The notes: generated by a model not told the origin, from the sequence alone. DNA of 64,000 bases from Escherichia coli (GCF_003334355.1 NZ_QOWP01000022.1); one strand, 5' to 3'; numbered from the stretch's first letter, positions 56,637-63,842 are shown. Program-made: numbers and translations.

Positions 56637-57005
56637 TTTATTTATATTGCGAATATAAATATTTTCTGAAAATCATATCTCATCTCTTTCCTTAATTACG
56701 ATTTTAGTTTAAACATCTCTTTGCGGAAATAATATAACTTCCTATAAACAAATATCAATTCCACCGTCATACACTAATCAACTGCACTTGTGAATTTATT
56801 TTTACTTAATTTTGAATTAAGTAAATTTAATTTGTTCAAAACTCTCTAAAGTGCACAATAGGCGACCTAATGAACAATGGTTGTAAATTTGGGTAACAAA
56901 TATCATTGCTCATTAATATCTAACATTTGTTTTTCCTATTTGTGTCATGAATAGTCATTCTTCAAACATGTAGTCTGACTAATGGAATTTTATTAAAGGA
57001 TTTTT
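56637..57005 (+). promoter_or_regulatory. AT-rich upstream region of the yad fimbrial operon (putative promoter and silencing region)
   Basis: 369 bp strongly AT-rich non-coding DNA containing the palindrome ttacttaatt-ttg-aattaagtaa at 56802-56824. Confidence 0.45.
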
Positions 57006-57590
57006 ATGTCTAAAAAATTAGGTTTTGCCCTGTCTGGTCTTATGCTGGCGATGGTTGCAGGTACTGCTTCTGCTGATATGGACGGCGGTCAGTTAAATAT
57101 CAGTGGTCTGGTTGTTGATAACACCTGTGAAACCCGCGTTGACGGCGGTAACAAGGATGGTCTGATCCTGCTGCAAACCGCAACCGTTGGTGAAATCGAT
57201 GCTGGCGTACTGAATGACACCGTTGGCGCTAAAGCTAAACCTTTCAGCATCACCGTTGACTGCAGCAAAGCAAATCCGAATCCAGGTAGCACGGCTAAAA
57301 TGACCTTCGGTTCTGTTTTCTTTGGTAACAGCAAAGGGACTTTGAACAACGACATGTCTATTAACAACCCATCTGACGGCGTTAATATCGCTCTACACAA
57401 TATTGATGGTTCCACTATCAAACAGGTTCAAATTAACAACCCTGGCGATGTGTATACTAAAGCCCTGGATGCAACGACAAAATCTGCTGTTTATGATTTT
57501 AAAGCGTCTTACGTTCGTGCCGTCGCAGACCAAACAGCAACTGCTGGTTATGTAAAAACTAACACTGCATACACCATTACTTATCAGTAA
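57006..57590 (+). CDS. yadN: fimbrial major subunit-like protein YadN
   Basis: 194 aa ORF with signal peptide, conserved Cys pair and C-terminal pilin-like end ...YTITYQ. Confidence 0.9.
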
Positions 57591-57622
57591 GTATTCACCA
57601 ATTAAATTGATTGAATGAATAT

Positions 57623-57673
57623 ACAGGGAATAGTATTAATAATTTCTATTTTTATATTATTCCCTGTTTTAAT
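57623..57673 (+). terminator. hairpin plus T-rich tract between yadN and yadV (intra-operon attenuator candidate)
   Basis: acagggaata...24-nt AT loop...tattccctgt followed by tttaatt. Confidence 0.5.
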
Positions 57674-57694
57674 TAACTCTGTCAGGGATGGTTT

Positions 57695-58435
57695 ATGTTT
57701 TTTAACACCAAACATACAACAGCTTTATGCTTCGTAACCTGTATGGCTTTTAGTTCATCGTCTATTGCGGACATTGTCATTTCGGGTACTCGCGTAATAT
57801 ATAAAAGCGATCAAAAAAGTGTCAACGTACGTCTGGAAAATAAAGGGAATAACCCGTTGCTTGTCCAGAGTTGGTTAGATACTGGCGATGACAACGCTGA
57901 GCCGGGCAGTATTACAGTCCCTTTTACTGCCACGCCGCCAGTATCGCGTATTGATGCCAAACGTGGGCAAACAATCAAATTAATGTACACCGCCAGCACA
58001 TCACTGCCTAAAGACAGAGAGAGTGTGTTCTGGTTTAACGTACTGGAAGTTCCACCAAAACCAGATGCAGAAAAGGTCGCGAATCAAAGCCTGCTGCAAC
58101 TGGCATTTCGTACACGTATAAAACTTTTCTATCGCCCGGATGGATTGAAGGGAAATCCCTCTGAAGCCCCGTTAGCCCTGAAGTGGTCCTGGTCAGGTTC
58201 AGAAGGTAAGGCGTCATTACGAGTGGCTAACCCAACCCCTTACTACGTCTCTTTTAGCAGTGGTGATTTGGAAGCCAGCGGTAAACGCTATCCGATTGAT
58301 GTGAAAATGATTGCACCATTCAGTGATGAAGTCATGAAAGTCACTGGTCTTAATGGCAAAGCGAATTCTGCAAAAGTGCATTTTTACGCCATTAATGACT
58401 TTGGTGGCGCAATTGAAGGTAATGCCAGGCTGTAA
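57695..58435 (+). CDS. yadV: periplasmic fimbrial chaperone YadV (EcpD)
   Basis: 246 aa ORF with signal peptide and PapD-like chaperone features. Confidence 0.9.
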   Translation: MFFNTKHTTALCFVTCMAFSSSSIADIVISGTRVIYKSDQKSVNVRLENKGNNPLLVQSWLDTGDDNAEPGSITVPFTATPPVSRIDAKRGQTIKLMYTASTSLPKDRESVFWFNVLEVPPKPDAEKVANQSLLQLAFRTRIKLFYRPDGLKGNPSEAPLALKWSWSGSEGKASLRVANPTPYYVSFSSGDLEASGKRYPIDVKMIAPFSDEVMKVTGLNGKANSAKVHFYAINDFGGAIEGNARL

Positions 58436-58469
58436 TCAGGCAACGATATAATTCCGCAGGAAGCATAGC

Positions 58470-61083: not shown

Positions 61084-61653
61084 ATGATAAAAACAACGCC
61101 ACATAAAATAGTGATACTGATGGGAATATTATTATCACCCTCAGTATTTGCAACGGATATTAATGTAGAGTTTACAGCCACTGTCAAAGCGACAACCTGT
61201 AACATCACACTTACTGGTAATAACGTCACGAATGATGGCAATAATAAATACACATTGAGAATCCCTAAGATGGGTCTGGATAAGATCGCGAATAAAACGA
61301 CAGAATCTCAGGCTGATTTTAAACTGGTTGCCAGTGGGTGCAGCAGTGGCATCAGTTGGATTGATACCACTCTGACCGGAAATGCATCATCAAGCTCACC
61401 TAAGCTTATTATACCGCAGTCTGGTGATTCATCTTCGACGACAAGTAATATCGGTATGGGTTTCAAAAAACGGACTACTGATGATGCCACTTTCCTTAAA
61501 CCTAACAGTGCGGAAAAGATACGCTGGAGCACAGACGAGATGCAGCCCGATAAGGGTCTTGAAATGACCGTTGCGCTACGTGAAACAGATGCAGGGCAAG
61601 GCGTACCGGGGAATTTTCGTGCACTGGCGACGTTTAATTTCATCTATCAATAA
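61084..61653 (+). CDS. yadM: fimbrial subunit-like protein YadM
   Basis: Start trimmed to MIKTTPHKIVILMGILLSPSVFA (189 aa); signal peptide, pilin-like. Confidence 0.85.
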   Translation: MIKTTPHKIVILMGILLSPSVFATDINVEFTATVKATTCNITLTGNNVTNDGNNKYTLRIPKMGLDKIANKTTESQADFKLVASGCSSGISWIDTTLTGNASSSSPKLIIPQSGDSSSTTSNIGMGFKKRTTDDATFLKPNSAEKIRWSTDEMQPDKGLEMTVALRETDAGQGVPGNFRALATFNFIYQ

Positions 61654-61664
61654 GAAGGATAATT

Positions 61665-62270
61665 ATGATGACATTTAAAAATTTACGTTATGGATTATCC
61701 AGCAGTGTCGTTTTGGCTGCCTCATTATTCAGCGTACTCTCTTATGCGGCAACAGACAGTATTGGACTGACCGTTATTACTACTGTAGAAATGGGTACTT
61801 GTACCGCTACATTAGTAAATGACTCTGATCAGGACATTTCTGTTGTTGATTTTGGTGATGTATATATTTCTGAAATCAATGCCAAGACCAAAGTAAAAAC
61901 ATTCAAACTCAAATTCAAAGACTGTGCGGGTATCCCCAATAAAAAAGCGCAAATAAAATTAACCAAGCGAGCCACATGCGAGGGAACTGCTAATGACGGT
62001 GCGGGGTTTGCAAATGGTTCCACAGCCGCAGATAAAGCAAGTGCTGTCGCCGTTGAAGTCTGGAGCACTGTAACTCCGGCAACAGGGAGTGCAACACAAT
62101 TTAGTTGTGTAACACCAGCATCACAAGAGGTAACAATCTCCACTGCAACCAATGCGGTCGTTTATTATCCGATGAGTGCACGCCTGGTCGTGGAAAAAAA
62201 TAAAACCGTAAACAATGTCACTGCGGGTAAGTTTTCTGCACCAGCCACATTTACAGTAACCTATAACTAA
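61665..62270 (+). CDS. yadL: fimbrial subunit-like protein YadL
   Basis: 201 aa ORF with signal peptide and C-terminal ...FTVTYN. Confidence 0.88.
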   Translation: MMTFKNLRYGLSSSVVLAASLFSVLSYAATDSIGLTVITTVEMGTCTATLVNDSDQDISVVDFGDVYISEINAKTKVKTFKLKFKDCAGIPNKKAQIKLTKRATCEGTANDGAGFANGSTAADKASAVAVEVWSTVTPATGSATQFSCVTPASQEVTISTATNAVVYYPMSARLVVEKNKTVNNVTAGKFSAPATFTVTYN

Positions 62271-62296
62271 CAGACTTACAGATTCAGGAACTATAT

Positions 62297-62893
62297 ATGC
62301 ATCCCACTCAACGTAAGCTGATGAAGAGAATAATTCTGTTTCTGTCATTACTGTTTTGCATCGCCTGTCCAGCCATTGCTGGACAGGATATTGACCTTGT
62401 TGCCAATGTAAAAAACAGCACCTGCAAAAGCGGAATCAGTAACCAGGGTAATATTGATCTTGGCGTCGTTGGGGTGGGATATTTTTCAGGTAATGTTACT
62501 CCTGAAAGTTATCAACCAGGTGGAAAAGAGTTCACTATCACTGTATCCGACTGTGCATTACAGGGAACTGGCGATGTGCTAAATCAGTTACATATTGATT
62601 TTAGAACCCTTAGCGGTGTCATGGCTGCTGGCTCCAAGCAAATATTTGCTAATGAAATTTCGTCAGGAGCAAGTAATGTAGGAGTAGTTATATTTTCTAC
62701 TCAGGATTCGGCGAATACATTCAATGTTCTTAATGCTTCAGGCGGATCTCGTTCCGTTTATCCAGTAATGTCGGATGACATGAATGGTTCATCCTGGAAA
62801 TTTAGCACCCGAATGCAAAAAATCGATCCTGCATTGAGTGTTACATCTGGTCAACTTATGAGCCATGTGTTAGTGGATATTTACTACGAATAA
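62297..62893 (+). CDS. yadK: fimbrial subunit-like protein YadK
   Basis: 198 aa ORF with signal peptide and C-terminal ...VDIYYE. Confidence 0.88.
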   Translation: MHPTQRKLMKRIILFLSLLFCIACPAIAGQDIDLVANVKNSTCKSGISNQGNIDLGVVGVGYFSGNVTPESYQPGGKEFTITVSDCALQGTGDVLNQLHIDFRTLSGVMAAGSKQIFANEISSGASNVGVVIFSTQDSANTFNVLNASGGSRSVYPVMSDDMNGSSWKFSTRMQKIDPALSVTSGQLMSHVLVDIYYE

Positions 62894-62942
62894 CAAACAA
62901 AAACAGCGCAAACCATAACAATAAAGAAACATTGGAGTAAAA

Positions 62943-63842
62943 ATGAAGACTATCTTCAGGTACATTCTTTTTTTAGCACTGTATTCTTGTTGTAATACAG
63001 TCAGTGCATATACAAGTTTTATTGTGGGAAATAATGCAGGAGTTGATAACTATCGAGGCCCCTCCACTGCCGCACAGATGACCTTTAATTACACATCAAC
63101 AGCAAGCAACTTGGTTTTTTATAAACCCACGCAGCTCGGCCCGACTGGGGTAAAAATGTACTGGTCATACCTGGATACAGGTACCGGTGGTGGTATTCTT
63201 TACTGCAATACATCTGGCAGAGCGAATCCTGGTCCAATAACTATTGAAAATGCCATGGTCTATTCAGGTAAAGATTATGGCGGACATAAACTATTTAATA
63301 CATCTGTTCCTGGTCTGTATTACACCATGTTAATATCAAGGGTCTGGTCTGCATACGATACAATAACTGACATTCAATCGCCAGGAATCTATATCGGAGA
63401 TCCTTCCAACCAAGAATTTTTCTTTTCCGTCACAGACAGCGATCTACAAACTAAGGGTTGCAACAAAGCAGACGACTACGATAAGTTTTGGGCTATTGGT
63501 GGTATAGTACACAACATAACTGTTGAATTTTATACAGATACTAATTTCGATCCTACACTTAATCAGCAAGTCCAGTTATCCAGTTCATCAAATTACCTTT
63601 ATTCGTTTAAGGCCTACAGTCCTGGTACAAAAGTTGTAGATCACAGCAACCACATTTATGTCAATTTCACACTGAATAATGTCAAATTAACCTTACCAAC
63701 ATGTTTTACCTCCATACTTACCGGGCCATCAGTCAATGGTTCAACGGTTAGAATGGGAGAATATAGCTCTGGGACAATTAAAAATGGCGCTTCACCTGTT
63801 CCCTTTGATATCTCGCTTCAGGTGATGCTGCCAACTTACTGA
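62943..63842 (+). pseudogene. yadC: yadC fimbrial tip-adhesin-like gene interrupted by IS1; native sequence ends at about 63820 and the frame runs 7 codons into IS1
   Basis: ORF is 299 aa whereas intact YadC is about 412 aa as I recall; the last codons (GDAANLL-stop) are encoded by the IS1 terminal inverted repeat. Confidence 0.8.

Follow-up and report, generated by a model that had tools for sequence, protein, structure and literature searches.

The Yad chaperone-usher fimbrial operon beside folK in an Escherichia coli chromosomal contig, an AT-rich locus with yadC cut short by IS1

A stretch of 64,000 nucleotides from Escherichia coli (GCF_003334355.1, NZ_QOWP01000022.1), referred to here as the window, carries a run of fimbrial genes between positions 56637 and 63842, that is, from the base right after the folK stop codon to the end of the stop codon of the last open reading frame (ORF) of the run. 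This region is very probably the chromosomal Yad chaperone-usher operon of E. coli, of the H-NS-silenced type, located in an old AT-rich island at the folK/panB site and carrying a yadC gene truncated by the insertion sequence IS1. The Yad operon, its silencing by H-NS, its distribution and its adhesin have all been published already, and the system is well known. The present copy is of little importance beyond annotation, the points particular to it being the IS1 allele, the empty-site support for insertion of the island and a palindrome in the leader.

The ORFs listed for window positions 54000-64000 place yadN, yadV (ecpD), htrE, yadM, yadL, yadK and yadC in this order on the plus strand 3' of folK (Table 1). 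Positions 2889-63821 of the window align with the reverse strand of K-12 MG1655 (211000-150075) as one block of 99.03% identity, in which the K-12 annotation names the same seven genes and gives folK-pcnB-gluQ-dksA and panB as their flanks. The K-12 operon (b0141-b0135) has the same order and the same place 3' of folK, with 98.9% nucleotide identity overall and 97.8-100% gene by gene. Six genes have the K-12 length and are free of frameshifts, and a few amino-acid substitutions distinguish YadV, HtrE, YadM, YadL and YadK from their K-12 counterparts. PSS-12 (NZ_AP027697.1), a commensal strain from human faeces in Ecuador, differs from the window by 16 single-nucleotide polymorphisms (SNPs) in 63,821 bp, without a single indel, and three of the SNPs are in the operon. 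The RefSeq annotation of the matching K-12 and PSS-12 regions gives the same seven yad names. The seven-gene order and the position on the folK side are thus seen directly in the window, and the position next to panB is read from the near-identical PSS-12. A Shigella origin, prompted by the presence of IS1 and by first matches of 98.9% identity, was ruled out by PSS-12.

The gene products have the composition of a chaperone-usher system, with a PapD-like chaperone, a FimD/PapC-like usher and subunits with Fimbrial domains. YadV scores 472 bits against NCBIfam NF007398 (cut-off 285) and matches Pfam PapD_N (E = 1e-44) and PapD_C (E = 3.5e-19). HtrE reaches 1700 bits against NF007337 (cut-off 830) and contains the Pfam domains PapC_N, Usher and PapC_C. 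YadL and YadK exceed the cut-offs of NF011795 (446 bits, cut-off 392) and NF011794 (309 bits, cut-off 132), respectively, and YadC exceeds its curated NCBIfam cut-off with a match spanning profile positions 1-294 of 412. The Fimbrial domain of YadN covers residues 31-194. In NCBIfam, YadN is similar to StaA (E = 2e-35) and YadM to StaD (E = 3e-43). The pilin subunits share a C-terminal ...TY(Q/N/E) motif. The ORF listing, NCBIfam, Pfam and the K-12 comparison together confirm the identities and the order of the seven co-directional genes named in a preliminary description of this DNA. That description also called the operon complete, which holds for the six full-length genes and is contradicted by the IS1-truncated adhesin gene. 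At yadM, an in-frame ATG upstream at 61042 would give an ORF of 203 amino acids; the annotated start in K-12 corresponds to 61084.

Table 1. Features of the Yad region, in window coordinates
Feature	Position	Strand	Remarks
AT-rich folK 3' tail, left edge of the low-GC block	56598-56636	+	last 13 folK codons
yad leader/regulatory region	56637-57005	+	369 bp, 26.0% GC; ends at the base right before the yadN ATG
perfect palindrome TATTTATATT-GCG-AATATAAATA	56639-56661	.	begins 3 nt past the folK stop
perfect palindrome, 11-nt arms, TTTACTTAATT-TTG-AATTAAGTAAA	56801-56825	.	core CTTAA-N7-TTAAG; candidate operator
yadN, major fimbrial subunit, intact	57006-57590	+	194 amino acids; 100% nucleotide identity to K-12
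hairpin and U-run, attenuator/terminator-like	57623-57667	+	yadN-yadV intercistronic; inverted repeat, 17-nt arms, 88% complementary
yadV (formerly ecpD), periplasmic PapD-like chaperone, intact	57695-58435	+	246 amino acids; 97.8% to K-12
htrE, outer-membrane usher, intact	58470-61067	+	865 amino acids; 98.8% nucleotide identity to K-12
yadM, minor subunit, intact	61084-61653	+	189 amino acids; 99.8% to K-12; Pfam Fimbrial
yadL, minor subunit, intact	61665-62270	+	201 amino acids; 99.5% to K-12; Pfam Fimbrial
yadK, minor subunit, intact	62297-62893	+	198 amino acids; 99.5% to K-12; Pfam Fimbrial
yadC::IS1 fusion ORF, truncated	62943-63842	+	299 amino acids; yadC part to 63821
IS1 left end	63821-64000	+	terminal inverted repeat GGTGATGCTGCC...; insA from 63876; runs off the window

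The AT content of the leader and operon had been set against that of the flanking core genes, with a comparison of GC content and codon usage proposed as a check, and both properties do differ. The guanine-plus-cytosine (GC) content of the yad coding sequence is 42.5%, compared with 52.7% for window positions 1-56636; because the panB flank is outside the window, the contrast is visible on the folK side only. At third codon positions the GC fraction is 0.34-0.41 in the yad genes and 0.47-0.70 in 43 flanking genes. Synonymous codon usage of the yad genes departs from that of the flanks (summed chi2 = 509, 41 degrees of freedom, p = 4e-82), with ATA, AGA and GGA enriched in the yad genes, and a leave-one-out likelihood test classifies six of the seven yad genes as non-flank-like, the exception being yadN. 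A likelihood change-point is found at 56598, 39 nt before the folK stop, with a GC fraction of 0.543 on its left and 0.260 on its right, and the GC content of the final 40 nt of folK is 27.5%. AT-richness and codon usage atypical of the host core, both of them expected of a xenogeneic island, are present in the yad operon.

The adhesin gene is disrupted, as had been proposed. Nucleotides 1-879 of yadC (codons 1-293 of 412) are 100% identical to K-12, whose YadC is a full-length protein of 412 amino acids. Colinearity with K-12 ends at 63821, and the reading frame then continues through six IS1-encoded codons (VMLPTY) to a stop codon at 63840-63842. The yadC bases at the junction read ...CTCGCTTCAG, and the terminal repeat of IS1 starting at 63821 reads GGTGATGCTGCCAACTTACTGATTTAGTG... 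(GGTGATGCTGCCAACTTACTG...); base 63821 (G) is assignable to either yadC or IS1. IS1 is visible for 180 bp, more than 9,000 E. coli records contain annotated IS1 that matches its end sequence, and the N-terminal zinc-binding domain of InsA is recognized by NF050000 (43.5 bits, cut-off 28). Rows of the junction search from query positions 52-65 onward, which had IS1 reaching upstream of 63821, were put down to chance extension within a set of about 74,000 IS1 flanks, the alignments to K-12 and PSS-12 fixing the junction at 63821.

The PDB sequence search with YadC returned no match, and the domain boundaries were therefore taken from Pfam and from an AlphaFold model. The Pfam Fimbrial (pilin) domain of full-length YadC comprises residues 265-411, of which the cut removes about 80%. 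An intact YadC has two domains, lectin and pilin, and the present gene encodes only the first 293 of its 412 residues. Because the pilin domain is mostly lost, the locus is a disrupted Yad operon and not an intact one. The AlphaFold model, built from 14 alleles and orthologues (alignment A2; predicted local distance difference test score 86.3, predicted template modelling score 0.76; model numbering equal to true numbering minus one), also has two domains, and the cut falls within the pilin-domain strand 286-296 (true numbering). In the model the truncation drops the last five strands, among them the C-terminal strand. Also lost is the invariant Cys295, which we infer to pair with the invariant Cys254. 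In a Foldseek search the model resembles the two-domain tip adhesins LpfD, CupB6, FimH, PapG and FocH, and its C-terminal domain resembles FimA, FimF and FimG.

The yadC-IS1 junction is absent from all 5,426 complete genomes of E. coli, and in PSS-12 an intact yadC of 412 amino acids is followed by panB. For these two reasons the insertion is, on sequence comparison, recent and private to this lineage. In a scan for the exact junction with each species represented by one genome, there was no match, as expected from the single E. coli representative. The exact 299-amino-acid fusion product was found in six short-read Logan contigs only (runs including ERR4578542, ERR15567805 and SRR31108529), which, like the window, break off at IS1. 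A contig mis-join at IS1, with yadC really intact, has to be weighed, since IS1 is highly repeated (median 10 places per E. coli genome), the window ends inside the element with the other junction out of view, and the junction is in no complete genome. Such a mis-join is nevertheless extremely improbable. The fusion is called on six independently assembled contigs from several sequencing runs, the junction falls at the precise IS1 terminus, and finished genomes carry annotated independent IS1 insertions in yad, namely in yadC of BE104 and in htrE of strain 4848.

With yadC truncated by IS1 in this lineage, the proposed fate of the adhesin follows from its domain structure. In the working model, YadV would chaperone the periplasmic subunits, HtrE would polymerize the fibre, and YadC would sit at the fibre tip and bind xylose-containing glycans and annexin A2, the ligands given in the literature. 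The YadC fragment would keep its lectin domain and lack the groove and the C-terminal strand used by the chaperone and the next subunit. Without this strand and Cys295, the fragment would therefore be neither held by the chaperone nor joined to the fibre, and would presumably be degraded in the periplasm. Even a derepressed operon would thus confer no Yad-mediated adhesion and probably yield few or no fibres. In type 1 and P pili, the usher is primed by a chaperone-adhesin complex (FimD/FimH, PapC/PapG), and mutants in the adhesin form pili poorly. It is because of this priming that few or no Yad fibres are expected.

Alternatively, the six intact genes, once derepressed, might build YadN fibres that are normal except for the missing tip adhesin and that could retain adhesin-independent roles, for example in biofilm formation on abiotic surfaces. 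The genes for YadN, the chaperone, the usher and the minor subunits have their full length, the promoter region is identical to that of PSS-12, and IS1 lies in the last gene, so that no polar effect on the upstream genes is expected. However, priming of the usher by the chaperone-adhesin complex in the best-studied systems, the predicted absence of the chaperone-binding strands from truncated YadC and the nature of the PDB entries matched by Foldseek, which are chaperone-adhesin complexes, make assembly of such fibres rather unlikely; no Yad-specific data on adhesin-less fibre assembly were found in the accessible papers. The preliminary description held that any fimbriae made would lack the tip adhesin. 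Loss of the adhesin is borne out, and loss of its pilin domain probably impairs assembly as well, to judge from type 1 and P pili.

Transcription of the operon would start from the AT-rich leader and be silenced by H-NS. In CFT073 and EC958, deletion of hns raises the activity of the yad promoter (Pyad) more than 100-fold, increases all seven transcripts and brings YadN to the surface, and complementation reverses these effects; chromatin immunoprecipitation sequencing places H-NS on the yad locus (PMC13245861). In K-12, the folK/yadN intergenic region is an H-NS-bound 'promoter island' (PMC3661553). Furthermore, yadN is listed in three H-NS regulon datasets and is up 2.4-fold on overproduction of the H-NS antagonist SlyA (PMC5797941). 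According to the citations of Korea 2010 and Larsonneur 2016 in PMC13245861, and of Korea 2010 in PMC5797941, the K-12 yad operon is cryptic, H-NS-repressed and functional. It is induced in K-12 by low temperature and, via ArcA, by anaerobiosis, and in extraintestinal pathogenic E. coli (ExPEC) by serum and in infected tissue; deletion of yad attenuates ExPEC (PMC13245861). In the working model these would be the ways in which silencing is countered: by SlyA, by ArcA, anaerobiosis or low temperature in K-12, and by serum or host tissue in ExPEC.

The leader had been described as strongly AT-rich and 369 bp long, and its length is exactly that. It has the lowest GC content among all 369-bp stretches of the window, none of those outside 56460-57121 being at or below 33%. 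The TpA frequency is 0.108 in the leader compared with 0.042 in the flanks. The K-12 leader is also 369 bp long and differs at 13 of the 369 positions, and the same regulation is therefore expected. Two perfect palindromes are found in this region (Table 1). In alignment A1, which comprises seven divergent yad alleles of E. coli, the right arm of the first, GAATATAAATA, and the following TTC.GAAAAT are invariant amid variable neighbouring bases, and the left arm varies. Since conservation does not extend to the left arm, it probably does not concern a hairpin. The second palindrome, about 190-200 nt upstream of yadN, has arms of a length matched in only 6 of 1000 dinucleotide shuffles. Its CTTAA/TTAAG arms are invariant and its 7-nt spacer is variable in seven divergent E. 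coli yad alleles, in leaders that are elsewhere about 72% conserved, and in E10 the element has a different but again symmetric form, CTAA-N9-TTAG. Ellison et al. (2026) deduced the existence of a counter-silencing, serum-response regulator of Pyad and could not find it. The second palindrome could be the operator of a regulator that counter-silences H-NS and drives the serum response of Pyad; this candidate assignment is decidedly doubtful, and the conserved palindrome is a cheap target in the search for a yad activator. A short ATG frame at 56870-56896 (MNNGCKFG and a stop codon) has counterparts of 4-8 codons in the aligned alleles, each with a Cys codon. It may encode a leader peptide, or may equally reflect a conserved promoter element resembling an extended -10 (TGT.A.AT).

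The hairpin between yadN and yadV folds stably: RNA of 57585-57700 has a free energy of -27.1 kcal/mol (z = -3.29), and none of 200 shuffles folds equally well. The strict intrinsic-terminator scan did not call this hairpin. By analogy with other chaperone-usher operons, it probably attenuates read-through and sets the ratio of the major subunit to the assembly proteins, which would leave YadN in excess of the products of the assembly genes.

Horizontal acquisition, the explanation offered earlier for the AT content, was examined at the folK-panB site. The folK-neighbouring DNA of 80 species representatives of the Enterobacteriaceae (loci L014-L093), 78 of them informative, was surveyed by locating homologues of panB, the usher, the chaperone and the subunits in each folK locus. 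The gap between folK and panB is empty and about 120 bp long (97-154 bp) in 66 of the 78 informative species, including Klebsiella, Enterobacter, most Citrobacter, Kluyvera, Kosakonia, Leclercia and Lelliottia as well as the surveyed Salmonella representatives (Salmonella enterica subsp. arizonae and diarizonae). In the remaining 12, a yad-like operon of 7.4-9.0 kb is located at the same site; these are E. coli (two representatives), E. whittamii, E. albertii, three Pseudocitrobacter, four Citrobacter and Superficieibacter. The ushers at filled sites are 58-62% identical to HtrE, and the orthologous leaders have 26-33% GC. The roughly 70 nt next to panB in E. coli have homologous counterparts in the genomes with an empty site. 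The C-terminal 17 or so residues of FolK read ...AEKPA(S/H)W at empty sites and are unrelated and variable where the operon is present, which suggests that the boundary of the island, or of the allele, lies within the folK tail. The survey directly supports insertion of an island at the folK-panB junction, which is a recurrent fimbrial 'slot', and the earlier proposal of horizontal acquisition stands with the qualification that the acquisition is old. In some Citrobacter and Pseudocitrobacter the operon at this site is larger and reaches 9.0 kb, the additional sequence lying between folK and the gene for the first subunit.

All sampled lineages of E. coli have an occupied slot. A megablast search with the yad query matched 4,743 of 5,426 complete E. 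coli genomes, 3,907 of them with query coverage of 80% or more. The nucleotide identity of the E. coli alleles ranges from 100% to less than 77%; usher identity falls to about 60% in E69, and strain 103 has a six-gene variant. The comparison across E. coli genomes that had been proposed thus finds a filled slot with divergent alleles, which were probably exchanged through the conserved flanks. A different history would make yad ancestral to Escherichia, Salmonella and Citrobacter and repeatedly and cleanly lost, its low GC content being kept by selection or mutation bias. Consistent with this, Wurpel et al. (PMC3559732) described Yad as core-associated and equal to Salmonella Sta, reported at the same locus, and inferred its presence in the common ancestor; the slot is also filled in four genera, namely Escherichia, Pseudocitrobacter, some Citrobacter and Superficieibacter. 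However, the uniform spacer in 66 of the 78 species would require many precise deletions. Moreover, the divergence of the E. coli alleles is far deeper than that of the core genome and fits allelic replacement via flanking homology, and the composition break at 56598 is sharp. Repeated loss of an ancestral operon is therefore unlikely, and insertion of an old island is preferred.

Several points weigh against the assignment of this region to an H-NS-silenced Yad operon with an IS1-inactivated adhesin. The silencing is expected here on the basis of the literature on K-12, CFT073 and EC958, that is, of strains other than this one. The high-affinity H-NS 10-mer TCGATAAATT is absent from the leader even when two mismatches are allowed, and the motif shows no enrichment across the yad operon. 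The sigma-70 consensus scan of the leader gave no promoter on the plus strand and did not locate a start site; its matches are on the minus strand or intragenic and occur at background frequency. The term cryptic, used in the preliminary description, is relative: it holds for laboratory conditions and not for ExPEC, where serum and infected tissue induce yad and the operon contributes to virulence. A simple IS1 insertion and an IS1-mediated deletion or rearrangement would fit equally, as the right end of IS1 and the 3' part of yadC lie beyond the window. Finally, the assembly defect is predicted from the behaviour of type 1 and P pili and not of Yad itself.

Insertion sequences have entered the yad operon in other lineages as well. 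BE104 also has IS1 in yadC, at about codon 154 and not after codon 293, whereas strain 4848 and many human, pig and poultry isolates have IS1 in htrE at about codon 38. Finished E. coli genomes also carry IS2, IS3, IS903B and ISKpn26 in yad. The recent, private IS1 knockout of the present lineage is a further case of the recurrent decay, mediated by insertion sequences, of a dispensable AT-rich fimbrial locus, and this IS1 allele is routine pseudogenization. In strain 2017.11.01CC, yadL is frameshifted.

Relative to PSS-12, the window lineage is distinguished within the operon by IS1 and by the substitutions HtrE E122K and YadK R114K, the former of which also differs from K-12. Ten of the 16 SNPs have A in the window and G in PSS-12. 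Those in yad include 58833 and 62637, and two of the three yad SNPs are amino-acid changes of the window lineage; changes elsewhere include DapD H56Y and ThpR G162R. Sixteen SNPs are too few to infer relaxed selection.

Among related systems, Sta of Salmonella enterica serovar Typhi (staA-G) provides the best non-Escherichia matches of YadN, YadM and YadL, to the StaA, StaD and StaE models, with scores under the equivalog cut-offs, so that the Yad proteins are related and not equivalent to them. Type 1 (fim) and P (pap) pili are like Yad in using the chaperone-usher pathway and in having a stem-loop after the major subunit gene, and the modelled YadC is similar to them in its FimH/PapG-like fold and its FimA/F/G-like pilin domain. 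Unlike fim and pap, Yad has no invertible promoter element, recombinases or Pap-type regulators, and its ligands differ; it has been reported not to be phase-variable (PMC13245861).

Upstream of the operon, gluQ (53777-54703), pcnB (54763-56160) and folK (56157-56636) all score above the NCBIfam equivalog cut-offs. The mechanically called pcnB ORF begins at a TTG at 54742, and the annotated K-12 start corresponds to 54763. The pcnB gene is known for its non-canonical AUU start codon. Over 4309-56636, identity to K-12 is a mosaic: dnaE, lpxA/B/D, fabZ, degP, rpsB, dksA and fhuC are at 100%, and yaeI (94.2%), gluQ (95.6%), mrcB (96.5%) and dapD (96.7%) are divergent, a pattern consistent with recombination tracts. 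The Rfam scan gave no match in 56637-64000. Elsewhere in the window, three minus-strand matches exceed the gathering threshold and are features expected in a K-12-like region, namely CssrA (23095-23204) between tsf and rpsB, t44 (24043-24129) upstream of rpsB, and the thermometer of the HtrA (degP) 5' untranslated region (33000-33045).

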